Of a stretch of DNA of 64,000 bases, positions 7,917-49,805 are shown in pieces. A program made the translations under genes and the position numbers. The DNA lies in the NCBI GenBank assembly GCA_040876345.1, contig JBBDPM010000001.1, positions 270,313 to 334,312 on the forward strand, in the 5' to 3' direction. Numbering within the stretch: position 1 is the first letter of the stretch; every line of letters starts with the position of its first letter. Below the pieces are notes generated by a model. The model was given only the letters and a program-made list of their open reading frames with translations, did no database searches and had not been told where the DNA came from. The DNA comes from Candidatus Woykebacteria bacterium. Its GTDB lineage: Bacteria; Patescibacteriota; Microgenomatia; Woykebacterales; RBG-16-39-9b.

Positions 7917-7953
7917 TTTCTGCAAGTTTAATTTATGGTATAATTTGGACAAG

Positions 7954-7993
7954 GCAAAGGCAGCAATAAAATTTGGTTCCTTTGTCCTTTTTT
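7954..7993 (+). terminator. hairpin (GCAAAGG...CCTTTGT) followed by T6; intrinsic terminator after manC or leader attenuator
   Basis: 7-bp stem, 18-nt loop, TTTTTT run; preceded by extended -10 TGgTATAAT (7936-7944). Confidence 0.4.
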
Positions 7994-8003
7994 AGTCCTT
8001 GGA

Positions 8004-10534: not shown

Positions 10535-10587
10535 GTCGCTTCGTGCTTTGAGTCTGTGAGACTAACGATTATTCGTAACCAAATAAG

Positions 10588-11340: not shown

Positions 11341-11427
11341 CAGCAGGCCGCTTGTGTTTATTGACGAGCCTGCTGCTTTCGACCCCACCTCCTTTCCAGC
11401 GCCCGCTTGCTTAAGACTGGGGCTTGT

Positions 11428-11598
11428 TTAGCCCAGCTGGACGGGTTTTTTACCACCAAGTTCCTCGCGGAGGATCTCTAGTTCCTCCGGGGCTTCGATG
11501 CCGAGCTTAACTCGACGTTTGCCGATCGAGAGTACCTTGATGAAGATGCGCCCGTCGATCCAGAACCCTTCTTGGAGTTTTCGATCCAGCACGATCAT
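11428..11598 (-). CDS. csrA: carbon storage regulator CsrA-like RNA-binding protein (56 aa)
   Basis: Not in ORF track (short). Translation MIVLDRKLQEGFWIDGRIFIKVLSIGKRRVKLGIEAPEELEILREELGGKKPVQLG matches CsrA fold pattern (MLxLxRKxxExxxIxxxIxIxVLxIxGxxVxLGIxAPxExxIxRxEL); GGAGG SD 6 nt upstream; GC clearly higher than flanks. Confidence 0.7.
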   Translation of the reverse strand: MIVLDRKLQEGFWIDGRIFIKVLSIGKRRVKLGIEAPEELEILREELGGKKPVQLG

Positions 11599-11625
11599 GT
11601 TAGGCCTCCCTCTCCTCAGTTATTT

Positions 11626-11685
11626 ACGGCTATCCTGGCCGTATTCAGGGATGTGTATTCTATACTAAACTAGCCTAGATTGCAA
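11626..11685 (-). promoter_or_regulatory. csrA promoter (TTGCAA-17-TAGAAT) and leader hairpin with GGA in loop
   Basis: minus-strand -35 TTGCAA (11680-11685), -10 TAGAAT (11657-11662), leader hairpin ACGGC-CAGGAUA-GCCGU (11626-11642) and GGA-containing SD: resembles CsrA autoregulatory sites. Confidence 0.4.
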
Positions 11686-11715
11686 ATGCACCAAACAAGC
11701 AGTATACTTTTGCAT

Positions 11716-13026
11716 ATGAAAAATGAGGAATTGATGGAAAAAATCGTCTCTCTTGCCAAGAGGCGAGGCTTCGTTTTCCCTGGAAGTGAGGTTTATGGCG
11801 GGCTTGGTGGAATTTATGACCTTGGTCCTCTGGGAGTGGAACTAGCAAATAATATTAAGCGGTTTTGGTGGAAGACTGTTGTGCAGGATAGAGAAGATGT
11901 AGTTGGATTGGACAGCGCAATTTTGATGAATAGTGAGGTTTGGCGTACTTCCGGCCATGTAAAAAGCTTTAGTGATCCTTTGGTTGAGTGTAAAAATTGC
12001 CACAACCGCTTTCGCGAAGACACGTTGCCAGAATCTAAAAACTGCCCAAATTGTGAAAAGAACGCTTGGACTGACACGAGAATGTTTAATTTAATGTTTA
12101 AAACTCACATTGGTCCTGTTCAAGATGTAGGTTCCGAAACCTATCTTCGGCCAGAAACTGCTCAGGGGATTTTTGTAAATTTTGGAAATGTTATCGATAC
12201 CATGCGGGTAAAACTTCCATTTGGGATAGCTCAAATTGGTAAGGGTTTTAGGAACGAAATAACTACCGGTAATTTTCTTTTTAGAGTTCGTGAGTTTGAA
12301 ATGATGGAGCTTGAGTACTTTACTTATCCGGAAAAAGCAGAGAAAGATTTCGAATACTGGCAAGAGCAAAGAATGAAATGGCACGAGAGCCTAGGTGTAA
12401 CGAAAAAGAATTTGAGGTTTAGAGAACACGCCAATACAGAAAGAGCGCATTATGCCGCTCGTTCAGTCGACATCGAATACAACTGGCCATTCATGGGTTG
12501 GGGAGAGCTTGAGGGAATTGCTAATAGGACAGACTTTGACCTGAAAGCCCATTCAGAGGCTTCTGGCAAGGATTTATCTTACTTTGATGAAGAGACCAAG
12601 AAGAAAATAGTCCCATACGTTATCGAGCCGTCAGTTGGTGTAGGACGCTCAATGCTTGCGGTTTTGGTCGACTCGTATTTTGAAGATGGAGATCGAGTAG
12701 TGCTTAAATTAAAACCACACCTTGCTCCAGTGAAAGTGGCTGTTTTTCCACTTCTTGCCAACAAACCAGAACTCGTCAAGTTAGCTAAAAAAGTTTACTC
12801 AGAACTCAAAATTCATAACTTTGGCCTAGTCGTTTGGGATGATAGGGGAAATATCGGTAAGCGCTACTACGCTCAAGATGAAATTGGTACACCCTATTGT
12901 ATAACTGTTGATTTTCAATCGTTGGAAGATACTACTGTGACAATTCGCGATCGAGATACTACTAAACAGAAGAGGGTCAAAATTAAAGACTTGGAAAAAG
13001 AGTTGAAAGAAAAGTTCCCTTTCTAG
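11716..13026 (+). CDS. glyS: glycine--tRNA ligase, dimeric (alpha2, eukaryote/archaeal/Thermus type)
   Basis: EKIVSLAKRRGFVFPGSEVYGGLGGIYDLGPLGVELANNIK... near-colinear with Thermus-type GlyRS; class II motifs FRNEI, RVREFEMMELEYF; start set at ATG 11716 (ORF track 11680). Confidence 0.9.
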   Translation: MKNEELMEKIVSLAKRRGFVFPGSEVYGGLGGIYDLGPLGVELANNIKRFWWKTVVQDREDVVGLDSAILMNSEVWRTSGHVKSFSDPLVECKNCHNRFREDTLPESKNCPNCEKNAWTDTRMFNLMFKTHIGPVQDVGSETYLRPETAQGIFVNFGNVIDTMRVKLPFGIAQIGKGFRNEITTGNFLFRVREFEMMELEYFTYPEKAEKDFEYWQEQRMKWHESLGVTKKNLRFREHANTERAHYAARSVDIEYNWPFMGWGELEGIANRTDFDLKAHSEASGKDLSYFDEETKKKIVPYVIEPSVGVGRSMLAVLVDSYFEDGDRVVLKLKPHLAPVKVAVFPLLANKPELVKLAKKVYSELKIHNFGLVVWDDRGNIGKRYYAQDEIGTPYCITVDFQSLEDTTVTIRDRDTTKQKRVKIKDLEKELKEKFPF

Positions 13027-13781
13027 GGAAGATCGCGGGGTTGTGAGCCATCGTAGCTGACTTCGTCTTCTTCGAGGCGGCGCACTGGTTTTTCCCTGGT
13101 TTTTTCCTCATGAACGTGAGCCACTAGACCTGCGATTCTACTGATTATGAAAAAACCGTTGCCCAGCTCTGGCGCAAAGCCAAGTTCACTCATTACCGCT
13201 GCAGTTATCCCATCGATATTTAAGCAGAGCTTCTTGCCAACTGCTTTTTCCAGCTCTTTTTCGATTTCCAAGGCAATTTCTATATGTGGGCCTTTGAAAT
13301 CTTGTTCCCCAGCTACTTTCAAGATTGCTTGGGTTCTTGGATCTGTTTCGTAAATTTTGTGCCCATAACCTGGTATGCGCTCACTTTTAAAACGTGCTTT
13401 CTCGACTATATCAGAGGATTTTGAGCTTTTTTTCACTGCGTCTTGAAGAATTTTCGCGCAAGACTCAATTGCACCACCGTGGCTTTCTCCAATCGCTGCT
13501 ACACCATTTGCCACGGCAGTTGATAGAGGAACACCACATGAAGCTGTGATTCGCGCAACCGTAGTTGAAGGGGCCTCTACTCCATGGTCGATAGAAGCTA
13601 CCAAAATAGCATTCAACATCAACTCTTCTTTTTCATTTGGAAGTTCTCCCTTGAGAACAAGAAAAATCGCCTGCGTGAAGCTTACTTTTTTGAGCATTTC
13701 GGTCAATTTGTACCCCCGAATGTGAGGTACTCCGTTAAAGTGCCCAGTTATTCCGCTTTTCCACTTCTTTTCTTCAGCCAT
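13023..13781 (-). CDS. citrate-synthase-like small-domain protein (citryl-CoA lyase-like)
   Basis: 252 aa; citrate synthase family signatures ESHGGAIE, IPGYGHKIY...DPR, C-terminal catalytic Asp region; size and content match the stand-alone citryl-CoA lyase/ACL C-terminal domain. Confidence 0.55.
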   Translation of the reverse strand: MAEEKKWKSGITGHFNGVPHIRGYKLTEMLKKVSFTQAIFLVLKGELPNEKEELMLNAILVASIDHGVEAPSTTVARITASCGVPLSTAVANGVAAIGESHGGAIESCAKILQDAVKKSSKSSDIVEKARFKSERIPGYGHKIYETDPRTQAILKVAGEQDFKGPHIEIALEIEKELEKAVGKKLCLNIDGITAAVMSELGFAPELGNGFFIISRIAGLVAHVHEEKTREKPVRRLEEDEVSYDGSQPRDLP

Positions 13782-13789
13782 AGGATTTA

Positions 13790-14686
13790 CTATTTTAACA
13801 TCTTTTTAAGTAATTTTGGTAAGTCGTCGGGTATTTCGGCAATAGCGACTCCGGCGCTTTCAAGCGCTTTTAATTTGTCGACTCTGTGGCCCATACCAGC
13901 TTCAATTATAGCACCTGCGTGTCCAAGAGCTTGGCCGTGGGGGAGCATTTCAGCAAAAAGTCCGGAGATAAAAGCGGCAACCGGTTTGGTAAATTTCTTG
14001 GATTTAATGAATTCGGCTGCTTCTTCTTCGTAAGTTCCCCCATGCTCGCCAAAAAGCACAACCCCCTTGGTTTCTGGATCTTTCTCAAAAAGTTCAAGTA
14101 AATCGACAAAAGTAGATCCAACAATCATATCTCCGCCTATTCCGGTGACTGTCGATTGCCCAAACCCTTCTTTTTTTAAAATATATGAAACTTCACTTGC
14201 CATCCCACCACTTTTGGAAATTACTCCAACATTACCTGGGGTAAAAGAAAAATTAGGATCGTCTCCACCAATACTTCCAAGTTTCACTTTTCCCGGTGAA
14301 ATAATACCAATGGAAGAAGGACCAACGACCCGAACACCTTTTTCCTTTGCGTAGGCAACTGCATATGCAGTATCTGATATTGGCATATGTTCAGTGAGGA
14401 CGTTAACCAAGGAGATTTTGTGAGCGGCTGCTTCCAATACGGCATCTTTGGCACCCATTTTTGGTACAGCGATGAAGGAGGTGTTTATCTTGGGAAATTT
14501 ATTCAAGGCTTCTTCCACAGTGTCAAAAACAGGGACAGTTTCAACTTTCTGACCGCCTTTTCCGGGAGTTACTCCAGCAAGCACGGCTGTGCTATAAGCA
14601 ACCATCTGCTTGATTGCTCGTTGGCCCTCTTTCCCAGTTGCCCCTTGAACTAAGACTTTTGTGTTTTTATCGATCAAAATAGACAT
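13790..14686 (-). CDS. sucD: succinyl-CoA synthetase alpha-subunit-like (CoA-binding, phosphohistidine GHAGA)
   Basis: KVLVQGATGKEG, GHAGAII catalytic His loop; 298 aa. Confidence 0.8.
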   Translation of the reverse strand: MSILIDKNTKVLVQGATGKEGQRAIKQMVAYSTAVLAGVTPGKGGQKVETVPVFDTVEEALNKFPKINTSFIAVPKMGAKDAVLEAAAHKISLVNVLTEHMPISDTAYAVAYAKEKGVRVVGPSSIGIISPGKVKLGSIGGDDPNFSFTPGNVGVISKSGGMASEVSYILKKEGFGQSTVTGIGGDMIVGSTFVDLLELFEKDPETKGVVLFGEHGGTYEEEAAEFIKSKKFTKPVAAFISGLFAEMLPHGQALGHAGAIIEAGMGHRVDKLKALESAGVAIAEIPDDLPKLLKKMLK

Positions 14687-14688
14687 AT

Positions 14689-15132
14689 CTAAACTAAATT
14701 TACAACTTCAGATACTTTATTGATTTTATGATTTGGTTTTTCATCTGATTTTTCCGGCAGCTCTTTTAGTCTAGGGCCAAATAAAAATTGACAAGTCTCC
14801 ATACCTTTTTGGTTACCAATCTTTATCTCACTTCTTACCCTATCTCCCACAACCAAAAATTCTTGTGGTTCAAATCCAAATTTTTCTATTATTGGGTCAA
14901 ACTCCTTCGTTCCTTCAAGCGGCATCACTTCTATGTAGTCAAAATATGTGTTTAAACCAAGATTACTTATTTGTTCTAGTCTTTTTTGCACGTCTTTTGT
15001 GCGACTTACCAAAGCTAATTTCAAACCCTTTTCATGTACTTCTTCTAAGGCTTCAATCGCCCCGTCTACAAGTTTTTCGTTTTCCGGATCATAAATTGTG
15101 TAGCCAAAATCGAAGATAATAGCTTTTATCAT
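14689..15132 (-). CDS. HAD-superfamily hydrolase (short)
   Basis: IIFDFGYTIYD (DxD motif I), ...VSRTK..., ...VGDRVRSE motif IV. Confidence 0.55.
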   Translation of the reverse strand: MIKAIIFDFGYTIYDPENEKLVDGAIEALEEVHEKGLKLALVSRTKDVQKRLEQISNLGLNTYFDYIEVMPLEGTKEFDPIIEKFGFEPQEFLVVGDRVRSEIKIGNQKGMETCQFLFGPRLKELPEKSDEKPNHKINKVSEVVNLV

Positions 15133-16343
15133 CTGCCCTCTTTACGTTTGTGTTCATTAACTAGATCAACCAAAACTTTGGCTGTGCTGGTCATTGGTGT
15201 TTCTGGGCCAAAGATGTGAAAGTTAAATCCTTCTTTCTTACCTACCTCTTTGAGCATCTCAAATGCTTCTTCGAAGCGCGGACCACCGCGGCGGATTACG
15301 ATTGGGTAAGAGGGTTTTGGTTTGATTGACCGCAAAGCATCAACAAAGCCAGCCAAAGTTTCGTAAATATCGGTAAAATTAGCGGTTGCCCCAACAAACC
15401 AAGCACCATTTAAGCCTTTTTTAGAAAGAATTAGTTTAGAAAGTTTTTCAAGTTTTTCTCTTGGAGGGTTTCCAGAATGTTCAGTGTAATTTGCTGGCTT
15501 TCCGCCAAGAGCAATCAAAGCGTCCATATTCACTAATGATCCACCACCACCGGCTGCAATTACTGCTATATCACCATCAAGCTCAATATAAGTAGAACCA
15601 GCACTTCCCCGGTGATCATTAGCGTCAATTTCTTTTGCCGCAAGTTCTGCTTCTGTTGGTTTGCGACCAAGTACATCTCGCGGTGGAAAATCAAGGTCAG
15701 TGTGGCGGAAATCGGCTTCATCATCCAAGATGACTTTAGCATCAGCAGCGTAAAATTCTTCATCTTCAGTTTCAATCAAAGGGTTTATCTCAACAAGCCT
15801 AGCATCATACTTGTTAAAGACCTCCCACATACTGAGCAAGATCTTAGTTAAAGAGAGGAAATGAATTCCTGAAAAACCTGCCTCAGAAAGTATCTCTCGT
15901 GCTTGCCAAGGTTGCAAACCCTCAGTTGGATTAACAGCAATTTTTTGGATAGATTCTTTATCCCTGGCTAATTCTTCGATTTCTACACCACCTTTTTTTG
16001 AAACTAAGGCAACGGGGGATTGGGCCGAAGTGTCAAAAGTAATACTTAAGTAGTATTCAGCCGTTTTATCAATTAGATATGGTTCGATTAGAACTTTTTC
16101 TATTTTTTCAGCACCTGTTTCCTTACCAATTAATTCTCTAACTGCGCTTTTAACCTCATCAAGACTTTTGCAAGGTTTAATTAGGCCGGATTTACCCCGA
16201 CTGCCAGATAAAACTTGAGCCTTTACTATTACTGGAAGGTCAAGGTCTTTAATGTCTTCTACAGAAGAAAAAACTTGGCCGTTAGGTACCGGAATTTGGG
16301 AGTTTTTGAAAAGTTTTTTGCCTTCAAATTCATAGAGCCTCAT
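15129..16343 (-). CDS. sucC: succinyl-CoA synthetase beta-subunit-like (ATP-grasp)
   Basis: MRLYEFEGKKLF N-term, ATP-grasp and CoA-ligase C-terminal domain (GGGGS...), 404 aa. Confidence 0.8.
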   Translation of the reverse strand: MRLYEFEGKKLFKNSQIPVPNGQVFSSVEDIKDLDLPVIVKAQVLSGSRGKSGLIKPCKSLDEVKSAVRELIGKETGAEKIEKVLIEPYLIDKTAEYYLSITFDTSAQSPVALVSKKGGVEIEELARDKESIQKIAVNPTEGLQPWQAREILSEAGFSGIHFLSLTKILLSMWEVFNKYDARLVEINPLIETEDEEFYAADAKVILDDEADFRHTDLDFPPRDVLGRKPTEAELAAKEIDANDHRGSAGSTYIELDGDIAVIAAGGGGSLVNMDALIALGGKPANYTEHSGNPPREKLEKLSKLILSKKGLNGAWFVGATANFTDIYETLAGFVDALRSIKPKPSYPIVIRRGGPRFEEAFEMLKEVGKKEGFNFHIFGPETPMTSTAKVLVDLVNEHKRKEGR

Positions 16344-16348
16344 AAAAG

Positions 16349-17014
16349 TTAATTTTTATCTACAATTTCTAGTTGGGGCTTATATTTAACGATTTTGTTG
16401 GCAGGTATATTACCGCGTATTGCGGCAAGTGGGTAAACAAGAGTATTCTTTCCGACAAAGGTGCCTGGATCTGTCACCACATTGCATCCAAGTTTAACAC
16501 CATCTCCGACAATTGCTCCGAATTTTTCCAATCCAGTTCCAACTTTCTTACCTTCGACTTCAACTTTTATCTCTAGGTCGGCGGCGCCATTTTTGTAATT
16601 AGCAAGAACAGCTCCGGCGGCTAAATTAACATCGCTTCCGACGACTGAGTCGCCTGCGTAGTTAAAATGAGATAGATTTGTGCTGTTGCCGACTATTGAG
16701 TGCTTAACCTCGGACCCATGTAAAACCCTGGAGTTTACGCCAATAATTGCCCCGTCTCTTATGAGAACGCCTTGACCAACTTTTGTTCCGTTTCCGATTA
16801 ATGCTGGGCCGATAATCTTTGCACTTGAGTCAATCTTGACATTTTCATCAGCGTAAACACCTTCGGAGATTTCTTTAAATCCCTCTAATCTTTGGCCATT
16901 TTCTTCGACAAATTTTTCGATTTGAGAAAGTGCATCCCAAGGGTGTTCTAGATTTTCGAAAAGACCTTTGAAATAAAGTTTGTCAGTATCAATAAACTCA
17001 GTCAAATTGACCAT
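16349..17014 (-). CDS. left-handed beta-helix (hexapeptide-repeat) acyltransferase-like protein; possible stand-alone GlmU C-terminal domain
   Basis: multiple [LIV]GxxxxI/V hexapeptide repeats (IGNGTKVGQGVLIRDGAIIGVNSRV...). Confidence 0.55.
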   Translation of the reverse strand: MVNLTEFIDTDKLYFKGLFENLEHPWDALSQIEKFVEENGQRLEGFKEISEGVYADENVKIDSSAKIIGPALIGNGTKVGQGVLIRDGAIIGVNSRVLHGSEVKHSIVGNSTNLSHFNYAGDSVVGSDVNLAAGAVLANYKNGAADLEIKVEVEGKKVGTGLEKFGAIVGDGVKLGCNVVTDPGTFVGKNTLVYPLAAIRGNIPANKIVKYKPQLEIVDKN

Positions 17015-25084: not shown

Positions 25085-25723
25085 ATGGATGAGACTGGCC
25101 AACCGGTCCAAAACACAGCAAACCCCAACCCAAAACCCGTTTCCTGGCCGAGAGTTTTGTTAACTGTATTAATAATAGTACTGGTGGTGAGTATATTAGC
25201 CGGTGGCTATTGGTATTTTGTACTCAACAAGCCGTCAGAGACGGTCGATACCAGCCCAATCAAAGTCTCCACTCAATCTTCAAAAAAAGCAACAGAATCT
25301 TCAAAAAAAGCCACTTCTTCTGCCAAAAAAGACGAAACTGCTAACTGGAAGGTTTACGAAGAAAAACAACTTGGATTTTTAATTAAATATCCTGGGACTT
25401 GGTCGATAAAAGCTGGGACGAGCGGTAGCGTTAGAGTCGTAAAACTAAACAAAGATCGGGAATCAATTGAAATTTATGAGGATGGAGGCATAGAAGGCGG
25501 AACTGACACGACAGTAGAACTCGCTGTTGGTTCCCACAAGCTAGAGTTCTGGGTATTCGACTCAGAGACAAACAGTCAAATTACATATGTTAATAGTAGT
25601 CCGAGATTAGAATCCAGGACATCTTCGTTGCTATTATTTTACATAATTCTTGACAGAAAAACACACGATCAGAGTTTAGCAGAGGTTAAAAAGATCCTTT
25701 CAACCTTCAAACTCCTGGACTAA
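25085..25723 (+). CDS. paralog-family member 1: Pro/Gln-rich N-tail, signal-anchor TM, S/T/K-rich linker, globular domain ending ILSTFKLLD
   Basis: shares N-terminal block (VSWPR/K-TM-WYFVLNKxS-TVDTxPIKVST-KKATESSKKATSS) and C-terminal STFKFLD motif with ORFs at 35400, 42280, 43866 and decayed copy 31283-32050. Confidence 0.5.
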   Translation: MDETGQPVQNTANPNPKPVSWPRVLLTVLIIVLVVSILAGGYWYFVLNKPSETVDTSPIKVSTQSSKKATESSKKATSSAKKDETANWKVYEEKQLGFLIKYPGTWSIKAGTSGSVRVVKLNKDRESIEIYEDGGIEGGTDTTVELAVGSHKLEFWVFDSETNSQITYVNSSPRLESRTSSLLLFYIILDRKTHDQSLAEVKKILSTFKLLD

Positions 25724-25908: not shown

Positions 25909-26178
25909 TAAGTCATAATTGAATTAAAAGAGCCAAAAGTTTATACTCCAGAGCAAGTGGCAAGGATGCTGCAGCTTTCTAAAAATACTGTTTACGATCT
26001 TATTAATCGAGGCGAAATTTTGGCAAAAAAGGTTGGGAAAGTTTACCGTATTCCCGAAAGCTCAATTTCTTTTGTTTTTACTGGTTTAGACTCCGACCTC
26101 CTTCAAGTTGAGCAAGAGGATTTGAAAAATATCGAAACTGTCAAAAAGGAAATCTCCGGCGCCCGCAGGAAATTATAG
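25909..26178 (+). CDS. excisionase/AlpA-family HTH DNA-binding protein (putative antitoxin)
   Basis: ...KVYTPEQVARMLQLSKNTVYDLINRGEILAKKVGKVYRI HTH; conserved helix-1 extends upstream of the first ATG (25957) in an open frame back to 25903, so start is probably a non-ATG codon (ATA/ATT ~25906-25911); start coordinate uncertain. Confidence 0.55.
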
Positions 26179-26186
26179 CCCCCTCC

Positions 26187-26609
26187 ATGAAAGTTTTTGT
26201 GGATTCAGACGTGGTTATCTCATCTTTACTTTCTCAATCTGGGGCAGCTTATATTTTGACCAACGCCAAAAACCTTCAACTTTTTATTTCAAATATTGCC
26301 TATCAAGAATTAAAAATTGTTACTGAAAGGTTGGGAATAGAAAAGCAAAAACTTGATGATCTTTTAAGAGAACGGTTTAAGACAGTTGAATTAGAAGAAA
26401 ATTTATCTGTAATAAAAGGAAAATATGGAAATCTTGTATTAGATCAAAATGATGCTCATATTTTGGCTGGTGCAAAAGCAGAAAGTGCAAGGTTTTTGGT
26501 TTCATATAGCACCAAACATTTTAAGGCCGAGGAAATTAAGAGAGTCTTTAATATTATTAGTTTAAAACCGGCTTTTATGCTTCAATATTTGAGGAGTTTG
26601 CAAAAATAG
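26187..26609 (+). CDS. PIN-domain protein (VapC-like toxin)
   Basis: MKVFVDSDVVISSL N-terminal acidic motif of PIN domains, 140 aa, 9 nt downstream of HTH gene. Confidence 0.6.
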   Translation: MKVFVDSDVVISSLLSQSGAAYILTNAKNLQLFISNIAYQELKIVTERLGIEKQKLDDLLRERFKTVELEENLSVIKGKYGNLVLDQNDAHILAGAKAESARFLVSYSTKHFKAEEIKRVFNIISLKPAFMLQYLRSLQK

Positions 26610-35338: not shown

Positions 35339-35362
35339 GTACAGTATACCAGTATACTGTAC
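35339..35362 (+). promoter_or_regulatory. perfect 10-bp inverted repeat GTACAGTATA-ccag-TATACTGTAC immediately upstream of the promoter of paralog 2
   Basis: exact palindrome seen in sequence; adjacent TTGACT (35366-35371) -35-like element. Confidence 0.3.
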
Positions 35363-35399
35363 TTTTTGACTTCGATATTACTTTTGTGGAACAATTAAA

Positions 35400-36125
35400 T
35401 TGATGGATAATCCTGTTCAGGCTAGCCAACCACAGTCAAATCAAACACCCTTAAGCCCAACTCAAGCGTCAGTAGCAAAACCAGTTTCTTGGCCAAAAAT
35501 TATTTTAACTGTTTTAGTTATTGCGATTGCTGTTGGATTATTAGGCGGTGGGCTCTGGTATTTTGTTCTAAATAAATCATCAGATACAGTTGACACAACC
35601 CCAATCAAAGTCTCTACCCCATCTGCAAAGAAAGCAACAGAATCTTCAAAAAAAGCCACCTCTTCTACCACAAAAGACGAAATATCTAATTGGGAAACTG
35701 ATGTTGAAAATTTCATGGGATTAAAGTTCAGCTTAAAGTACCCTGCTAAATTCACTATTTACAGGAGTCATAATGCAGATGCCGTTTATACGACCGACGA
35801 AGGTTCCGAGAAGTTTTATGTCGTGACAAACAGAAGTTCGCTCATAACGAATTATGAGAACGGTGATGTTAGCTTATCTGTTTATGTTGAAGATAATCCT
35901 GTCTTGGCTCAAGGGATTAAATATGTGGATGCGGAATTCGCTGGAGTGGAAGCCAAAATGGGTGAGGGAGAGAGTCAAGGCGGTGGAAAAGTAGAGTATT
36001 ACACTAACAACCAACCATCAGCCAAGGGTAAATATGTAACTTTCTCATGCCTTTTTTACCCCTCCACTGATTTAGACCTTAAGAAAATATGTGACTTGAT
36101 GGCCTCAAACTTCAAATTCCTCTGA
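35400..36125 (+). CDS. paralog-family member 2 (ends ...MASNFKFL)
   Basis: N-terminal 90 aa and underlying DNA (tcttcaaaaaaagccac(c/t)tcttct...) nearly identical to member 1; C-terminal FKFL motif. Confidence 0.5.
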   Translation: MMDNPVQASQPQSNQTPLSPTQASVAKPVSWPKIILTVLVIAIAVGLLGGGLWYFVLNKSSDTVDTTPIKVSTPSAKKATESSKKATSSTTKDEISNWETDVENFMGLKFSLKYPAKFTIYRSHNADAVYTTDEGSEKFYVVTNRSSLITNYENGDVSLSVYVEDNPVLAQGIKYVDAEFAGVEAKMGEGESQGGGKVEYYTNNQPSAKGKYVTFSCLFYPSTDLDLKKICDLMASNFKFL

Positions 36126-41571: not shown

Positions 41572-42112
41572 TCACCACCTCGCAGATACTCTCTTTTTTA
41601 ATTTTTCGTAAAAGTTTTCTCTTAGTCCAATCATTATCACAACCGCAGAGTTTAGCTTAGGATAAATCACGTAAGCTACTCTATATTGCTTACCTTGATA
41701 AGAAAAGTGGGTAGGAGCGATAAACAGAAAGGCCACCTTTTAAAGGCTCTCCAACCGACGGGTCTTCAGAAATAGTCTTTAGTGATTGTAAGACTTTGTC
41801 TTTAAATTGCTTATCTAATTTGCGAAAATCCTTTTGAGCGGCTTTTTCTAGATTGATTGAGTACATTTACACTTCTTGGAGAAGTTTTTCGATGGGAACG
41901 GTGTCTGCAAGGGGGTCTTTTTTGGTAAGTAGAGAACGAACTCTAGACTTTAATTCGTCACTAAAATCTCTGTCAGAAAGAATATCCAACCCTTCGGCTT
42001 CCTGAGGCGAAAGTTTCTTAAACCTCTCCCAAGGCACAAGAACATACGAAGGCTTACCCTACTTATCAAGGACGATTTTTGATTTTGTAGCTAGAGTTGT
42101 TTTATAAGTCAT
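41572..42112 (-). pseudogene. decayed type II toxin-antitoxin pair: antitoxin with in-frame TAG (41867-42112) plus RelE/ParE-family toxin with +1 frameshift (41572-41866)
   Basis: minus-strand translations MTYKTTLATKSKIVLDK*GKPSYVLVPWERFKKLSPQEAEGL... and MYSINLEKAAQKDFRKLDKQFKDKVLQSLKTISEDPSVGEPLKGGLSVYRSY..(shift)..GKQYRVAYVIYPKLNSAVVIMIGLRENFY (RelE/ParE core). Confidence 0.5.
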
Positions 42113-42203
42113 ACTAAAATTATAATATCATAGTATAAAATTTTAAGAAAGAACAACATTGTGTGACGCGAACAATGTATCCTGACCATATTGAAATTAA
42201 GGC

Positions 42204-42219
42204 TTGACTGGGGGGGGGG
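42204..42219 (+). repeat. TTGACT followed by G10 homopolymeric tract in promoter region of paralog 3
   Basis: gggggggggg at 42210-42219 directly abutting a -35-like hexamer. Confidence 0.6.
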
Positions 42220-42279
42220 CAGGACGAATTAAAATTAAAACAGTTGATTATTTACTAGAACTTTTTATATACTAAAACT

Positions 42280-42999
42280 ATGCCAGAGAACACTAACCAA
42301 CCAACACCAACTCAACCAGCATCACAAGGAATTAATTGGAAAAATATCCTTATTGGAGTAATTATTGGTGCAGTTCTAGTTGGTGGTGGAGGCTTTCTAG
42401 TTTACAACGCCTATCAACCCAGGAAAGAAGAGCTAATCCAAACTACCACAACTCCAACAAAAACAGCGATGCCATCTGCTTCAAAAGATAAGTCTGGTAA
42501 GTGTGATACCTATTCAAATAAGGTTGTGGGAGTAGAATTTAAATGCCCAGAGGGCTGGTTTTTTGAAGAAACTACGATACATGAAGTTAAAACAGTAGGT
42601 CTTTCAGACAAACCTTTTGACTACGAAGGTAAAGATAATATTATGATTACTATAAATACTGGAGATAATAGCAATGACGCTAAATTCAGATTCAGGGACG
42701 TGGAAGAATTAAAAATTGGTGCAACGGAGACACGCAAACCAGATTCGGATAACCCGTACACAGCAAAGACAACTAGATTGGCGGACGTCGAACTTGGTGG
42801 GGTTAAAGGTTTGCAATTTGAAGAAATTGATATTCCAGTGAGTAAGAAGGAGGATATTACACCATACAATTTATACATCTACTTTAAGCGAAACGACGAA
42901 TACGGAGACATCAGTTTAACAGTTAGAGGTGAAACTACTTATAAATCTGCAAAGGAAATACTGAAAGAAATTCTTTCAACCTTCAAATTCCTCGACTAA
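42280..42999 (+). CDS. paralog-family member 3 (ends ...ILSTFKFLD)
   Basis: Pro/Thr-rich N-tail, TM (ILIGVIIGAVLVGGGGFLVYNAY), C-terminal domain ending KEILKEILSTFKFLD. Confidence 0.5.
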   Translation: MPENTNQPTPTQPASQGINWKNILIGVIIGAVLVGGGGFLVYNAYQPRKEELIQTTTTPTKTAMPSASKDKSGKCDTYSNKVVGVEFKCPEGWFFEETTIHEVKTVGLSDKPFDYEGKDNIMITINTGDNSNDAKFRFRDVEELKIGATETRKPDSDNPYTAKTTRLADVELGGVKGLQFEEIDIPVSKKEDITPYNLYIYFKRNDEYGDISLTVRGETTYKSAKEILKEILSTFKFLD

Positions 43000-43387
43000 G
43001 CCTTTTAGTTTTGGTGCCAGTCCTGTAACTACGTTTTAGTGGGTTGACTACGTTAATGTTAAGTACTATATTAGAAATAATTAAAGTGATTTCTTAGTAT
43101 TAATTGATATAGCAAGAATAAGACGAATTAGATATTCCAGCGTTTATTCGGCAAAGATAGCCCCTATAATCTTCCTACAAGTTACTTATCTTCCAAATAA
43201 CATTAATTTAGCCTAAAAACCACGTCGCTTATCGCTTATTGCCCAACATTTTAGTAAATTTGCTTGAAAGACGTATAATAATCCATGACAACAGCGAAAC
43301 CTGTTGGTAAAAGATAGAGATCGAAATTGCGGTAGTCTTGAGGAGGCTTGCTGTCAAGCTTCCGAGCACCTGCGAGGGAGGTGACTT

Positions 43388-43642
43388 GTGTCACGCAGGA
43401 TAATCGTCATAACCGTCTCCAGGGAGTGGTGGGTGATTATTGGATTCATTCTGCTACTCATTGCCTTTCAGATAGGATGCAGCTTCCTAATCGGAAAGGT
43501 GTTTCAAGAGTTGCAGGAACCGCCGCTGGCCATACCAGTTGTGCTGGTGGTAGTAAGCCCCGCACTCACCCTCCTCTTCTACCGGCTTGCTGAAAGGAGG
43601 GCCGATATACAGATCAACCGTTGTACAGAACCCGATTTCTGA
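43388..43642 (+). CDS. hypothetical 84-aa two-TM membrane protein in a GC-rich island
   Basis: GTG start preceded by GGAGG-6nt; two clean hydrophobic helices (WWVIIGFILLLIAFQIGCSFLIG, AIPVVLVVVSPALTLLFY); TATAAT at ~43273 and hairpin leader; GC clearly above flanks. Confidence 0.35.
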   Translation: MSRRIIVITVSREWWVIIGFILLLIAFQIGCSFLIGKVFQELQEPPLAIPVVLVVVSPALTLLFYRLAERRADIQINRCTEPDF

Positions 43643-43670
43643 TCAGCGGCCCAACTAGTAGCGGTGCTAA

Positions 43671-43709
43671 GAGCGTCTTCTTGGTTGAGGACGCTCTTCT
43701 CGCTTTTGG
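43671..43709 (+). terminator. intrinsic terminator (GAGCGTC-loop-GACGCTC + T-rich tail)
   Basis: 7-bp GC-rich stem, 12-nt loop, followed by TTCTCGCTTTTGG. Confidence 0.5.
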
Positions 43710-43865
43710 ATACAGAGTTAGCCTCTAGTTAGGTCGTTGGGTTGACACTTGAGTATTTTCCAGCTATATTTTAAACAATGTCTAAAACTGCTCAAGACCC
43801 GCTTTTTTTAATTTCTTCAAGTAGTTCTGCAAGGTATGTTATCCTAAATTTCACAAGAGAGGAGG

Positions 43866-44198
43866 TTGAAAATTATGGCTGATGCACCAGTTCAGGTGCC
43901 GCAAACACCCCAAGCCCCACAAACACCACCGGTCTCACAAGTTGTTCAGGGAGGTGGTAAGGGTATATCGTGGGGAAAAGTGATACTAACCGTAGTAATT
44001 ATTGTAGTTGTAACGGCTGCTATAGCCGGGGCTTTATGGTATTTTGTATTAAACAAAACTTCGGATAGTGAAGAGTCTTTAGGTAACGTCAGAATAACCA
44101 CCCCCAAGACTACCGCTTCAACAGACTCCGCTACGAAGTCGGCGACAAAATCCGCTGAAGCTACTAAATCTGCTACAAAGTCTGCAAACAGCGAATAG
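43866..44198 (+). CDS. paralog-family member 4, truncated (110 aa: N-tail + TM + S/T/K-rich repeats KSATKSAEATKSATKSA, no globular domain)
   Basis: shares ISWGKVILTVVIIVVV...WYFVLNKTSDSEE block; strong promoter TTGACA-17-TATATT (43742-43770) and GAGGAGG SD. Confidence 0.45.
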   Translation: MKIMADAPVQVPQTPQAPQTPPVSQVVQGGGKGISWGKVILTVVIIVVVTAAIAGALWYFVLNKTSDSEESLGNVRITTPKTTASTDSATKSATKSAEATKSATKSANSE

Positions 44199-44203
44199 TT
44201 TTA

Positions 44204-44313
44204 GGGCCCACAGTTAATTTACATGTTGACAAAGGGGTGGACTTATTTGATAGAATGATGGTGGGCCCCTAAACCAAGTATAACTTGGACCCCTCTAAAG
44301 GAGGCCTTTTTTC
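44204..44313 (+). promoter_or_regulatory. pyrG promoter (TTGACA 44226-31, TAGAAT 44251-56) bracketed by 8-bp inverted repeat GGGCCCAC/GTGGGCCC; predicted transcript starts GGGCCCC
   Basis: seen directly; leader contains CCCCUCU-AAA-GGAGG hairpin + U6 upstream of ATG. Confidence 0.4.
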
Positions 44314-45942
44314 ATGGCAAAAAAAGAAACTAAGTACATATTCGTTAGTGGTGGAGTTATTTCTGGGATTGGTAAAGGTATCACCACTGCTTCCCTGGCT
44401 GCGATTCTACAATCTAAGGGCTTCAAGGTTTCCCCAGTAAAAATTGATATGTATTTAAATGTTGATGCGGGAACTATTCGCCCTCAGGAGCATGGTGAGG
44501 TTTTTGTGACCGATGACGGAGTCGAGACTGACCAGGATTTAGGTCATTACGAAAGATTTTTGAATACACCCTTGAGATCAGCCAATTACATTACAACTGG
44601 TCAAGTCTATCAGGAGGTAATTAATAAAGAACGCTCTTTTGATTATGATGGTGAGGATGTTGAAGCAATACCCCATGTTACCGATGAGATAATTAGGAGA
44701 ATAAAAGAGGCTGGTACTTCTAGAGAAGCAGAGATTGTTTTAATTGAGCTAGGCGGAACTGTAGGTGAGTACCAAAACGCCCTTTTCTTTGAAGCCTCCC
44801 GTATTATGCAGCTTAAAAATTCTGGTACGGTAGCTCATGTGCACGTGGCCTACTTACCAATTCCTAAAAGCCTAGGAGAGATGAAATCTAAACCCGCCCA
44901 GCAATCAGTAAGGAGTTTAAATGAGATGGGAGTGCAGCCAGATATTTTGGTGGGAAGAAGCGAGTTACCAATTGATGAGCGTCGGAAAGAGCGTCTTGCG
45001 CTTTTTTGTAATGTGCAAGCAGAGGATGTGATATCAAATCCGGATGTAGGGACAATTTACGAAGTGCCCCTTATTCTTGAAAACCAACATATTGGTGAGA
45101 GAGTCCTTTCTAAACTAAATCTGGAATCTAAAGAAAAGGACCTTTCCGAATGGAAAGAACTATTAGCTAGGATTGATAACTTAAAAGATGAGGTGAATAT
45201 AGCGATTGTTGGTAAGTACTTTGCAACCGGCAATTTTCAGCTTGAGGATGTTTATGTATCAGTAATTGAGGCAATTAAGCACTCTGCATGGGCAAACTCT
45301 GTTAAACCAATTCTTCATTGGATCGATTCTGAGGATTTCGAGAAGGGTAAGTCTGCTGAGGAAGTTTTGGGCAACATGGATGGAGTAGTTGTACCAGGTG
45401 GTTTTGGAGGCAGAGGCATAGAAGGGGTAATAAAGGCGATCACTTACGCAAGAGAAGCAAAAAAACCCTATCTTGGTCTTTGCTACGGTATGCAACTTGC
45501 CACTATCGAATTTGCCCGCAGGGTTGCTAATATTAGTGAGGCTCATACAACCGAAGTTGATAAAGACTCGACCGATCCTGTGATTAATGTAATGCCAGAG
45601 CAAGAAAAATTGATGATCGGTAAAGAGTATGGTGGTACGATGAGACTTGGATCGTTTCCTTGTAAACTTAAAGACGGTACATTAGCAAGGAAGATTTATG
45701 GTGAAGAGGTGATTCATGAACGCCACCGCCATCGCTACGAATTCAATAATAGTTATAGAGAAAAATTGGAAGAAGCTGGCTTGGTAATTTCTGGAACTAG
45801 TTTGAACGGAAAATTAGTGGAAATGATTGAGCTATCTAACCACCCTTTCTTTGTTGGTACCCAATTTCACCCCGAATTTAAATCACGACCTTTACAGCCT
45901 CACCCAATCTATCTTTCTTTTATAGAAGCCTGTAAGAAATAA
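44314..45942 (+). CDS. pyrG: CTP synthase
   Basis: KYIFVSGGVISGIGKGITTAS, GYGMQLA glutaminase Cys motif. Confidence 0.95.
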   Translation: MAKKETKYIFVSGGVISGIGKGITTASLAAILQSKGFKVSPVKIDMYLNVDAGTIRPQEHGEVFVTDDGVETDQDLGHYERFLNTPLRSANYITTGQVYQEVINKERSFDYDGEDVEAIPHVTDEIIRRIKEAGTSREAEIVLIELGGTVGEYQNALFFEASRIMQLKNSGTVAHVHVAYLPIPKSLGEMKSKPAQQSVRSLNEMGVQPDILVGRSELPIDERRKERLALFCNVQAEDVISNPDVGTIYEVPLILENQHIGERVLSKLNLESKEKDLSEWKELLARIDNLKDEVNIAIVGKYFATGNFQLEDVYVSVIEAIKHSAWANSVKPILHWIDSEDFEKGKSAEEVLGNMDGVVVPGGFGGRGIEGVIKAITYAREAKKPYLGLCYGMQLATIEFARRVANISEAHTTEVDKDSTDPVINVMPEQEKLMIGKEYGGTMRLGSFPCKLKDGTLARKIYGEEVIHERHRHRYEFNNSYREKLEEAGLVISGTSLNGKLVEMIELSNHPFFVGTQFHPEFKSRPLQPHPIYLSFIEACKK

Positions 45943-45953
45943 ATCTGGGGATT

Positions 45954-46265
45954 TCAGAAAATTGAGCTTTCGGGGAAGTCCGGAAAAGAAACTTTTTGGG
46001 TATCAAAATCTTTTTTATCGAATTTTTCCATGAGCTCAAACACACATCTCACACCGGCCAAATTAATATTCCTTTTTGTGGTGAGGTAGCGGATAAATTG
46101 AAGTTTCTCGATATCTTTCTGGGAGTAGCGTCTTCGGTTGGTTTTTGTCCTTGATGGGATAACTAATCTTTGACTTTCATAGATCATCAGTGTTCTTGGG
46201 TGAACGCTTAAGATTTCGGCAGCGACCGAAAGAGTAAATAAGGGCTTAGAATTCTTTTCCTCCAT
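45954..46265 (-). CDS. MerR-family transcriptional regulator (HspR-like)
   Basis: FTLSVAAEILSVHPRTLMIYESQRLVIPSRTKTNRRRYSQKDIEKLQFI = MerR HTH + dimerisation helix. Confidence 0.75.
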   Translation of the reverse strand: MEEKNSKPLFTLSVAAEILSVHPRTLMIYESQRLVIPSRTKTNRRRYSQKDIEKLQFIRYLTTKRNINLAGVRCVFELMEKFDKKDFDTQKVSFPDFPESSIF

Positions 46266-46501
46266 GGACGTTTATACTATAACAAAATGTTATACTATTT
46301 CAAGTGTAAATAGTGTCTCCACCCCGATTATATTAGAAAATTTCCGGCCCTCTTTTGTAATCTAGGCTACTTGACAAGGTGTATAAAAGGTGTTACATCC
46401 ATGTTGTAAGGTTTTTGAAAAAGTAACCTAGTTTCTGCCCACTTTTAATTTCTACTGCCCAAAAGAAAAAAAGATCGAATTGGATTTTTGCCTGAAAGGA
46501 G

Positions 46502-46816
46502 GTGAAAAAGCTCAAAGAGATACTTTCTGTAAAGAAGGCATCAACTGGACAGCGCGTTATGACAATGACAACAGAGGAAGCAGGTCGTCGTGGTGGTCTA
46601 GCTGTTAAAAAGAAGTACGGCCCAACATTTTATTCAGAAATTGGTAGAAAAGGGGGACAGTCCACTAAGCGCAACTATGGACCAGACTTTTACTCAAAAA
46701 TCGGGGAAAAAGGTGGTGAGGTGGTTAAAGATAAGCATGGCGTAGTTTTTTACTCGGAGATTGGTAGACTTGGCGGAAAGTCCCGTGCTAAAAAGCAGAT
46801 GAAATTTGAGTTTTAG
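46502..46816 (+). CDS. KGG-repeat general stress protein (GsiB/YciG-like)
   Basis: four tandem repeats of ~20 aa (GRRGGLAVKKKYGPTFYSEIGRKGGQSTKRNYGPDFYSKIGEKGGEVVKDKHGVVFYSEIGRLGG) matching the KGG/stress-induced acidophilic repeat. Confidence 0.7.
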   Translation: MKKLKEILSVKKASTGQRVMTMTTEEAGRRGGLAVKKKYGPTFYSEIGRKGGQSTKRNYGPDFYSKIGEKGGEVVKDKHGVVFYSEIGRLGGKSRAKKQMKFEF

Positions 46817-46823
46817 TTTTTTT

Positions 46824-46921
46824 AGCTTTAAAAAAAGCTAAATCCCCAGTAAAACTGGGGGAAATTATCTTGGTTTTTCAAACAAAAATACAAATCGCTT
46901 GTTAAGCAGGCGATTTTTTGG
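46824..46921 (+). terminator. three consecutive hairpins after the KGG gene (AGCTTT/AAAGCT; CCCCAG/CTGGGG; AATCGC/GCGATT + T6), the last 20 nt before ileS ATG
   Basis: seen directly. Confidence 0.4.
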
Positions 46922-46937
46922 TTTAATTTACCCTGTT

Positions 46938-49805
46938 ATGTTTAAAGAAGTTTCGTCAAAAGTCGATTTTGCTGACCTGGAAAGAAAAGTCCTTTCTCAT
47001 TGGGACAAGATCTCTCTTAACAAGAAATATCTAGAGAGAAACCAATCGTCGGCGAAGAAATTCTCTTTTCTTGATGGCCCTATAACCGCTAATAACCCGA
47101 TGGGCGTGCACCACGCGTGGGGTAGGTCTTACAAAGATCTGTGGCAGCGTTTTTTCAATATGAAAGGGTTTCGCCAAAGGTTTCAGAATGGCTTTGATGA
47201 GCAGGGACTTTGGATTGAAGTAGAAGTGGAAAAAGAACTTGGTTTAAAAAGTAAGAAGGATATTGAGAATTTAGTACCTGGAAATGTTTTCGAATCGATT
47301 GCTAAGTTTGTAGATCTTTGCAAAGAACGAGTCAAGAAATTTTCGGCCGTTCAAACCGAACAATCTAAACGTTTGGGATACTTCATGGATTGGGAAAATT
47401 CCTATCACACTTCTTCTGATCAAAATAATTACGCCATTTGGCACTATCTAAAAACTGTTCATGAAAAAGGCTGGCTTTATAAGGGCCGCGACTCTGTACC
47501 TTGGTGCCCGCGTTGCGGTACGGCTATTTCTCAACACGAAATTTTAACTGAAGAGTATAAAGAAATAACTCACAAGGCACTTTTTGTAAAGTATCCGGTA
47601 GTTGCTGAGGATTATAGTCTTTTGGTGTGGACAACAACTCCTTGGACCCTTCCTGGTAATGTAGCTGTAGCAATTGATCCAAAAAAAGACTATGCAATTA
47701 CCAAAGACAATCTAGTTGTCATGTCATCCCGAATCCATGCTCTTGGACTAGAGAAAGTAAAAATAATTAAGGGTAAAGATTTAATTGGTAAAAAATATAT
47801 TGGACCCTTTGACCAACTTGAAAGGGTAAAAGAAAGTTTGGAAAGCTTTGGACACATCGTAATAGACGGTAGAGAACTTGTGAATGAGGATGAAGGTACT
47901 GGGCTTGTTCACATTGCTCCAGGTGCCGGAGAAGAAGATTTTAAATTACACAAAGACCAAAACTTACCGCTTATCGAACTTATAGACGAAGAAGCATCTT
48001 ATATTGATAGCTTAGGGGAGTTTTCTGGAAAAAATGCCAAGAAACTCCCTGAATTAATTATTGATTATCTTGATAGAAAAGACGGTGGGAAGTTTCTTTT
48101 TAAGGTGGAGAATTATAAACATCGCTATCCTACCTGCTGGCGGTGCAAGACTGAGCTCGTTTGGAGAGTAGTGGATGAGTGGTACATAGCAATGGACTCA
48201 CCCTCGCGCCAGGATATGGGAAGCAAGCCAAAAACCTATCGGGAGATGATGAAAGAAGTGATTAAAGATATAAATTGGCTTCCGAAGTGGGGATACGATA
48301 GAGAGCTAGATTGGCTGAACAATATGCACGATTGGCTAATTTCCAAGAAGCGCTATTGGGGTTTGGCTTTGCCAATTTGGGAATGTACAAATTGTGGTAG
48401 TTTCGACGTTTTCGGTTCAAAGGAAGATCTGAAAAAAAGAGCGGTTGAGGGTTGGGATAAATTTGAGGGAATATCTCCCCATAGGCCAATAATAGATTTG
48501 GTTAAGATTAAATGTTCCAAGTGTGGCGAGACAGTTTCACGGATTCGAGATGTTGGAAATGTGTGGCTCGATGCTGGAATTGTTTCCTACTCCACGCTGA
48601 AATATTTTGAAGATAAAAATTATTGGCAAGAGTGGTTTCCAGCCGATTTCATCACCGAAAGTTTCCCAGGGCAGTTCAAAAACTGGTTTTATTCGCTGAT
48701 TGCAATGTCTACTGCACTTGAGGCCAAAGCGCCATTCAAAACTCTTTTAGGGCATGGCCAAGTGCGCGACGAGAAAGGTGACGAGATGCACAAGAGCAAG
48801 GGAAATGCGATTTGGTTTGATGAAGCAGCTGAAAAAATGGGCGTGGATGTAATGCGCTGGATTTACTTGACCACAAACCCCGAACACAATGTTAACTTCG
48901 GCTACCATGTGGCAGATGAAGTCCGTCGCCGTTTTTTTCTGATTTTCTGGAACGTTTACGTGTTTTTTGTTACCTATGCCAATATCGATAAATGGGAGCC
49001 TTCGGCAACCGAAAAAGCGGAACTTTCCGATCCGCTAGATCGGTGGATTATTTCTGAGCTGAATCGGTTGATCGATTCTGTTAATAGAAAATTAGAAAAT
49101 TATGATGCGGCTACCTCCTCTCGGGAGATAGAAAAGTTTGTTATCGATCTTTCTACTTGGTATGTAAGGCGAATTCGCGATCGAGTTGGGCCAACAGCTA
49201 AAAATGGGCTGTCGAAGGTAACTACTTACCAGATGCTCTACACTACTCTTACAGCTTTAAGTAAACTTTTGGCGCCTTTTACGCCTTTCATCGCGTACGA
49301 GATTTATAAAAATCTTACTGATGAAGAGTCTGTGCATCTTGCAGACTACCCTGGAGCGGATAAAAGCGCTATTGATAAGGATTTGATTTTAAACATGGAT
49401 CAGGTTCGCAAATTGGCCGAGGTTGGTCACTCTTTGCGTAAAGAAAAAGGGATAAAGTTAAGGCAGCCTTTAGCGGTATTCTTTTATGGGAAAGATATCG
49501 AGAAACTTCCAAAAGAACTCGAAGATGTTTTGGATGCCGAGCTCAATGTTAAAAAAATAGTTTATGACAAAGGTAAAAAACCTTCTTTCGATTTCTATAT
49601 CACGGAAAGTCTCGCTGCTGAGGGTGAGGCAAGAGAGCTTGTTCGGAAAATCCAGGAAGTTCGCAAAGAGTTAGGGTGTAAGATGGATGAGTTCGTGAGT
49701 GTTGAGCTTCCAGATTGGCCAAAAGAATTTGAAGATTATCTAAAAAAAGAAACTCTCGCCAAAAACCTCACTAAAGGCGAAAAAATCCTCGTATCAAAGT
49801 CATAG
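46938..49805 (+). CDS. ileS: isoleucine--tRNA ligase (eukaryote-like type)
   Basis: class I HIGH-like region GPITANNPMGVHHAWGRS...GFDEQGLWIE (cf. IleS GWDCHGLPIE), KMSKS = MHKSKGN; start set at ATG 46938 (track used TTG 46899). Confidence 0.75.
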   Translation: MFKEVSSKVDFADLERKVLSHWDKISLNKKYLERNQSSAKKFSFLDGPITANNPMGVHHAWGRSYKDLWQRFFNMKGFRQRFQNGFDEQGLWIEVEVEKELGLKSKKDIENLVPGNVFESIAKFVDLCKERVKKFSAVQTEQSKRLGYFMDWENSYHTSSDQNNYAIWHYLKTVHEKGWLYKGRDSVPWCPRCGTAISQHEILTEEYKEITHKALFVKYPVVAEDYSLLVWTTTPWTLPGNVAVAIDPKKDYAITKDNLVVMSSRIHALGLEKVKIIKGKDLIGKKYIGPFDQLERVKESLESFGHIVIDGRELVNEDEGTGLVHIAPGAGEEDFKLHKDQNLPLIELIDEEASYIDSLGEFSGKNAKKLPELIIDYLDRKDGGKFLFKVENYKHRYPTCWRCKTELVWRVVDEWYIAMDSPSRQDMGSKPKTYREMMKEVIKDINWLPKWGYDRELDWLNNMHDWLISKKRYWGLALPIWECTNCGSFDVFGSKEDLKKRAVEGWDKFEGISPHRPIIDLVKIKCSKCGETVSRIRDVGNVWLDAGIVSYSTLKYFEDKNYWQEWFPADFITESFPGQFKNWFYSLIAMSTALEAKAPFKTLLGHGQVRDEKGDEMHKSKGNAIWFDEAAEKMGVDVMRWIYLTTNPEHNVNFGYHVADEVRRRFFLIFWNVYVFFVTYANIDKWEPSATEKAELSDPLDRWIISELNRLIDSVNRKLENYDAATSSREIEKFVIDLSTWYVRRIRDRVGPTAKNGLSKVTTYQMLYTTLTALSKLLAPFTPFIAYEIYKNLTDEESVHLADYPGADKSAIDKDLILNMDQVRKLAEVGHSLRKEKGIKLRQPLAVFFYGKDIEKLPKELEDVLDAELNVKKIVYDKGKKPSFDFYITESLAAEGEARELVRKIQEVRKELGCKMDEFVSVELPDWPKEFEDYLKKETLAKNLTKGEKILVSKS

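Follow-up and report, generated by a model that had tools for sequence, protein, structure and literature searches.

A G9/G10 homopolymer upstream of a putative surface-protein gene in Candidatus Woykebacteria: phase-variation switch or slippage hotspot?

Does a run of ten G residues beside a -35-like hexamer switch the gene of a putative surface protein on and off in a Woykebacteria bacterium, or is the run a slippage hotspot with little consequence for expression? The initial annotation of the stretch of 64,000 nucleotides analysed here (the window) had proposed the former, with the tract lying inside the promoter that drives the gene, designated paralog 3, and altering its -35/-10 spacing. 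The CPR (Patescibacteria) lineage is thought to live attached to other cells, and no description of simple-repeat (SSR) phase variation in CPR bacteria themselves was found in the literature searched. A demonstrated switch would be new for this lineage, though of a well-known kind. The sequence confirmed that the hexamer is followed by ten G residues without a gap:

42204-42209, + strand: TTGACT, a -35-like hexamer read from the sequence, adjoining the G tract and belonging to a candidate upstream promoter (P_A)
42210-42219, + strand: G10 homopolymeric tract, at -61 to -70 relative to the ATG of the paralog 3 gene; G9 in three other assemblies

The G10 tract was the sole G/C run longer than six in the 64-kb window, and the runner-up was one G6 at 24182. 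At least one G10 or C10 occurred in 7 of 100 dinucleotide-preserving shuffles, so that composition alone gives a p of ~0.07. The real run-length distribution drops much faster than this shuffle model: in 180 kb of pooled Woykebacteria-type DNA, G/C runs of 4, 5, 6, 7, 8, 9 and 10 nt were counted 550, 116, 9, 1, 0, 1 and 1 times, respectively. Because the pooled counts fall off faster than the model, the G10 tract is an outlier, of the kind that arises once a run is long enough to slip. Its length also exceeds the ∼7-8 units or more of slippable homopolymer or short repeat on which a spacer switch depends. TTGAC[AT] had a frequency of ∼0.55 per kb per strand, and the exact adjacency of TTGACT and the tract is unlikely to have arisen by chance (roughly 0.001-0.005), though it was spotted post hoc.

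The only other long G/C run in ∼123 kb of related DNA was a C9 in another Woykebacteria MAG (L014:19098-19106; JBBDPN010000001.1). It reads as G9 on the coding strand, encodes GGG inside a small 71-aa MORN-repeat-like ORF and is a possible intragenic slippage site. The flanks of the G10 tract, searched with a variable gap, had no match in JGI metagenome contigs, and Rfam and tRNA scans gave no match near the tract. A small ORF across the tract was considered and rejected, as none of at least 40 aa was present and the sequence contained only a 13-codon TTG-initiated reading frame. The tract as a recombination junction was rejected as well: local alignments of the intergenic region to all family upstream regions reached at most 24, within the range of the shuffled controls (median 24, 95th percentile 29). 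The 11-mer just right of the tract (GACGAATTAAA) recurs at the 3' end of the ORF upstream of the family genes L032 and L043; judged from its C-terminal residues only, this ORF looks like a HicA-type toxin.

Five assemblies that encode the identical 239-aa protein were compared at the G tract:

SRR27977661_16742 (Logan), 237,269 nt: G9
GCA_040903525.1 (JBBDVF010000004.1), 375,585 nt: G9
SRR27977662_344066 (Logan), 30,346 nt: G9; the contig stops 2 nt 5' of the tract
SRR27977658_83340 (Logan), 237,270 nt: G10
GCA_040881185.1 (JBBEDR010000004.1), 469,346 nt: G10, the tract length of the window

This comparison, which the initial annotation had put forward as a check, showed a variable tract, with G9 in three assemblies and G10 in two. 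The SRR27977661 contig, the one G9 contig tiled across the full window, matched all 64,000 bases with 0 mismatches and with 0 gaps except for one G of the tract. GCA_040903525.1 did not differ from the window over positions 1-16840 and 31867-52038 besides the tract, and no further difference was found in SRR27977662 over 42211-47999 or in SRR27977658 and GCA_040881185.1 over 960 nt. The two long single-run contigs, of 237,269 and 237,270 nt, are exactly one base apart. None of the other homopolymers in the window, including A8 and T8, was a discordant site. At the level of assemblies, the tract therefore has the length variation (G9 versus G10) within or between clonal populations that is expected of a spacer switch. 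A chimeric assembly join at the poly-G was considered and rejected, because four assemblies connect the same two flanks within contigs of 237-469 kb; in the remaining one, the contig breaks at the tract.

The gene downstream of the tract belongs to a family with three members in the window:

42280-42999, + strand: paralog 3 gene, encoding a 239-aa protein, with its start set by the conserved M-P-E N-terminus
25085-25723, + strand: paralog 1, with TTGACA / 18 nt / GATAAT / 8 nt / ATG and no tract
35403-36125, + strand: paralog 2, with TTGACT / 18 nt / AACAAT / 7 nt / ATG and no tract

The name paralog 3 is justified, since the genes at 25085-25723 and 35403-36125 are weak paralogs by blastp (E 2e-6 and 2e-4) and by alignment. 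The paralog 3 protein has a short cytoplasmic tail, then one transmembrane helix (approximately residues 20-44), a Thr/Ser/Pro-rich linker and a hypervariable outer domain. All three paralogs have in common the N-terminal tail, the single helix, the Thr/Ser/Pro linker, a ∼150-aa hypervariable domain and the C-terminal ILSTFKFLD. In relatives KKKR directly precedes the helix, which by the positive-inside rule indicates a predicted N-in, C-out topology. PsbP_2 (PF18933) scored below the Pfam gathering threshold of 27 bits in paralog 3 (18.8), paralog 1 (16.4) and the homolog P0003 (23.5), and the AlphaFold model of paralog 3 (pLDDT 48.8) was too poor for fold comparison. The designation as a putative surface-protein family thus appears reasonable as far as the predicted membrane anchor and the hypervariable outer domain are concerned.

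Family loci were collected from the window, GTDB genomes, JGI metagenomes and exact-protein look-ups with a tighter alignment (A2), the first alignment (A1) being too divergent, and this yielded 24 distinct loci. No G/C run of at least 7 nt was present upstream of the other 23 distinct loci. A/T runs of at least 10 nt upstream of the family loci were also checked and no homopolymer tract was found. The G tract is not a family feature. Three family copies (L012, L015 and L017) were found on OZ246414.1, a complete 915-kb chromosome titled 'uncultured Gammaproteobacteria'; given the CPR-type family, this taxonomic label looks wrong. One of these copies, L017, is a pseudogene with ATT instead of ATG and a frameshift. 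In other genomes as well, family genes lie near toxin-antitoxin or mobile-element genes: a gene encoding Resolvase/Recombinase domains precedes the one at L005, and L007 includes a PhdYeFM antitoxin gene.

Comparison of the family upstream regions pointed to a promoter between the tract and the gene (P_B), preceded by a block of A-tracts:

42227-42240, + strand: AATTAAAATTAAAA, A-tract block at -53 to -40, read from the sequence
42244-42249, + strand: TTGATT, -35 of the family-typical promoter P_B, from the promoter scan and family comparison
42268-42273, + strand: TATACT, -10 of P_B, ending 6 nt before the ATG, with its first T at -12

The start codon at 42280 is fixed by the MPE/MPD N-terminus in all relatives, and there is no alternative start because an in-frame stop lies 21 nt upstream. 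P_B can thus be written as TTGATT / 18 nt / TATACT / 6 nt / ATG (42280). Promoters with 17-18 nt between -35 and -10, and with 6-9 nt (mode 7) from the end of the -10 to the ATG, were found at 22 of the 24 distinct family loci. Across the window, the -10 ended 5-18 nt before a start codon in 12 of the 20 best promoter-like matches, and TANNNT was approximately two-fold enriched at -20 to -11 of the genes. Among the 62 window genes, 18 (∼29%) had TANNNT at -16 to -11, 16 had a Shine-Dalgarno-like motif and one had both; about half had neither a Shine-Dalgarno-like motif nor the leaderless signal. Example starts of the leaderless-type class are 5725, 37412, 55316, 42112(-) and 46265(-).

In the portion of PMC3160421 available to us, the signature given for leaderless genes is a TANNNT -10 that precedes the start codon by ∼12 nt, and Woykebacteria are not among the genomes named in that portion. 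The paralog 3 gene resembles the genes described there, as its TATACT starts at -12 and GGAG, GAGG and AGGA are absent upstream, leaving it with no Shine-Dalgarno motif; the likeness concerns the promoter of the gene and not the tract. Given the leaderless register of TATACT and the family geometry, the paralog 3 gene is most likely transcribed from P_B as a leaderless mRNA, with a predicted start at or next to the A of the ATG. Such a start would place the G tract at -61 to -70 and leave ∼24-25 nt between the tract and the -35 of P_B. UP elements are positioned at -40 to -60. The AATTAAAATTAAAA block is probably an UP-element-like region of P_B rather than the site of the -10 candidates that the initial annotation had seen in it. 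The initial annotation had placed the tract within the driving promoter, but the family-conserved P_B sits 40 nt downstream (22 of 24 loci). Comparison across the family and the window genes therefore suggests that the tract lies not between the -35 and -10 of the driving promoter but upstream of both, a position which the initial annotation had itself named as speaking against its proposal.

The proposed AT-rich -10 candidates next to the tract do exist, as AATTAA at a spacer of 17 nt and TAAAAT at a spacer of 20 nt. AATTAA is a poor -10, with no T at position 6, and the second hexamer is the one left for P_A:

42230-42235, + strand: TAAAAT, the only good -10-like hexamer for P_A, matching TATAAT at 5/6 positions

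TTGACT and TAAAAT each match the consensus at 5/6 positions, and the spacer between them equals the tract length plus 10, i.e. 20 nt at G10, 19 nt at G9 and 17 nt at G7. Neither observed length gives a spacer of 16-18 nt, and the 19-20 nt between TTGACT and TAAAAT are beyond this optimum, which argues against the spacing switch that had been proposed. P_A was not called in the promoter scan with 16-18 nt spacers, and a TG extended -10 motif is absent from it. Since some candidate promoters of the lineage have 19-nt spacers, a change between G9 and G10 could toggle a weak upstream promoter. A leadered transcript from it, which would have no Shine-Dalgarno motif, might still be translatable, as about half of the window genes have neither signal.

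The intergenic region that holds the tract is 167 bp long, and from it diverge the paralog 3 gene and a decayed toxin-antitoxin module of the ParE type:

41572-41866, - strand: ParE-like toxin gene, decayed, in two overlapping frames (41690-41866 and 41572-41736)
41867-42112, - strand: divergent antitoxin-like ORF with an in-frame TAG at 42059-42061
42156-42178, no strand assigned: operator-like inverted repeat ACATTGT-N9-ACAATGT on the toxin-antitoxin side of the intergenic region

A separate TATAAT (42119-42124) precedes the ATG of the antitoxin-like ORF by 6 nt, and the inverted repeat looks like an operator for autoregulation of the toxin-antitoxin module. The wider region is the division and cell wall (dcw) cluster, from mraZ to ftsZ, in which the family genes are inserted after murB (25085), murD (35403) and ftsZ (42280), each with its own leaderless-type promoter. 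A second toxin-antitoxin pair (HTH_17 and PIN; 25966-26609) is located in the dcw cluster right after paralog 1. Adjoining the -35 of paralog 2, positions 35339-35367 contain a perfect 11-bp inverted repeat, GTACAGTATAC-ca-GTATACTGTAC, followed by T5; it could be the terminator of the murD operon or an operator.

Homopolymer switches in promoter spacers include the poly-G of Neisseria meningitidis porA, the poly-C of opc and fetA and the poly-A of Mycoplasma hyorhinis vlp. The present locus is like them in having a 9-10 nt G/C homopolymer beside a -35-like hexamer, upstream of the gene of a surface or membrane protein from a variable family, and a one-unit length difference between otherwise identical genomes. 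In porA, opc, fetA and vlp, however, the tract lies within the -35/-10 in use and its lengths bracket 16-18 nt, whereas the family-conserved promoter of the present locus lies 40 nt further on, and P_A would have a spacer of 19-20 nt at the two observed lengths. The vlp tract is moreover present in every family member, and here it is present at one of 24 distinct loci. The TAAA repeats of Neisseria nadA and the poly-A of Neisseria nspA (the latter in PMC6389960, by its title) are simple-sequence tracts of polymorphic length outside the -35/-10 spacer, in front of the core promoter of adhesin or surface-protein genes. With the poly-G/C contingency loci of Campylobacter jejuni and Helicobacter, as described in the accessible part of PMC8355987, the locus shares a G/C tract of at least 8 nt that is rare in an AT-rich genome and varies in length clonally. 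According to the same part of PMC8355987, those loci are mostly intragenic frameshift switches, many per genome, in host-adapted pathogens, whereas here a single intergenic tract was found in 64 kb of an environmental CPR bacterium.

In one explanation of these observations, the tract has one true length and no regulatory role, and the G9 and G10 calls and the contig break reflect polymerase or sequencer slippage and low coverage. Long G runs are known to be error-prone, as the initial annotation had cautioned, and the SRR27977662 contig indeed breaks at the tract; a sole discordant site in 64 kb together with a contig break is the pattern of a site-specific technical problem. The run accession numbers are also neighbouring, so that the reads probably come from one project and platform. 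However, a consensus assembly represents the majority of reads and stutter at a run of 9-10 nt is normally a minority, which should not flip the consensus in two of five assemblies, and no other window homopolymer is discordant. Because two run-level assemblies disagree (SRR27977658 with G10 and SRR27977661 with G9), as do the two submitter MAGs, it is more likely that the modal length really differs, or that G9 and G10 are mixed almost evenly, than that the discrepancy is pure technical stutter. The discrepancy could be partly technical, and we consider a wholly technical origin rather unlikely. If the lengths are real, slippage may switch transcription from a promoter that uses TTGACT (42204) as -35 and TAAAAT (42230) as -10, with the G tract as most of the spacer. 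Such a promoter would be on at G7-G8, weak at G9 and off at G10 or longer, and it could act by itself or be superimposed on the leaderless promoter, e.g. through an extra leadered transcript or occlusion of the downstream promoter. In agreement with this, both hexamers match the consensus at 5/6 positions, a -35-like hexamer exactly abutting the tract is improbable by chance, the assemblies differ in tract length and a few candidate promoters of the lineage have 19-nt spacers; phase variation is also expected in a gene family of this kind, which combines a hypervariable outer domain with an N-terminal module that is conserved. On the other hand, the observed spacers are 19-20 nt, no G7-G8 allele was present in the five assemblies, there is no TG extended -10 to offset the long spacer, and the other 23 distinct family loci have no tract. 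The promoter in leaderless register 40 nt downstream would, moreover, drive the gene regardless of the tract. As the tract lies upstream of the promoter used by the gene family, a classical spacer-length on/off switch is unlikely.

The length of a tract outside the spacer could also act in a graded manner, by setting how the leaderless core promoter is phased along the helix with respect to an upstream-bound factor, either the alpha subunit of RNA polymerase or a regulator, e.g. at the operator-like repeat of the toxin-antitoxin module. The position at -61 to -70 falls in the zone of upstream contacts and class I activators, and the tract is variable in length. [quoted passage not shown] Like the sabA tract, the G tract is a length-polymorphic simple-sequence tract outside the -35/-10 spacer and upstream of the core promoter of a gene for an adhesin or putative surface protein. 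Unlike the sabA tract, it is 24 nt away from the -35 and does not separate the core from UP-like or regulator sites, as the A-tract block is on the promoter side, between tract and -35, so that the phasing of block and core would be independent of tract length. Upstream of the tract we recognised neither anything like an UP element nor a plausible activator site for the gene; the lone inverted repeat there belongs to the divergent toxin-antitoxin promoter. We regard this phasing effect as very improbable. Doubtful as well is a contingency switch in which slippage tunes P_A (TTGACT / Gn+10 / TAAAAT) and P_A competes with or adds to the leaderless promoter; within one clone, some cells would make more of a single variable surface protein than others, or would encode it on leadered instead of leaderless transcripts. 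The explanation we favour, which we hold with about even confidence, is that of a genuine slippage hotspot that lies outside the core promoter and affects expression little, or modulates it modestly at most. Slipped-strand mispairing would alter the length of the G tract, so that G9 and G10 would both occur in natural samples of one clonal population, and P_B would drive the paralog 3 gene as a leaderless mRNA, like the rest of the family. As the tract would be located upstream even of the A-tract (UP-like) block, a length change would leave both the -35/-10 spacing and the UP-to-core spacing intact. A change between G9 and G10 would then cause little or no on/off change of the paralog 3 gene and at most modest modulation, and the tract would be a mutational hotspot near a promoter rather than an evolved spacer switch. 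Against this favoured reading, P_A would be a 10/12 promoter if the tract were G7-G8, and may be a second, tract-dependent promoter.

If the length difference is biological, a single homopolymer can be the fastest-evolving site of an otherwise clonal CPR population, with one change against none elsewhere in 64 kb, and the tract would be a candidate for stochastic surface variation. Since the tract appears to lie outside the working promoter, however, it should by default be regarded as a mutational hotspot that has little effect on regulation. As a by-product, the analysis revealed a consistent promoter architecture of the leaderless type in the gene family and in ∼29% of the window genes.

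Two further parts of the window may be mentioned. The ∼875 bases 3' of paralog 3 (43000-43874) contain small ORFs only and had no Rfam match; one of the ORFs, of 84 aa (43388-43642), is annotated in one MAG only. On the - strand, positions 13023-16343 encode Citrate_synt, CoA-ligase, ATP-grasp_2 and Citrate_bind domains, an ATP-citrate-lyase-like gene set; to our knowledge, such central-carbon genes are unusual in reduced CPR genomes.
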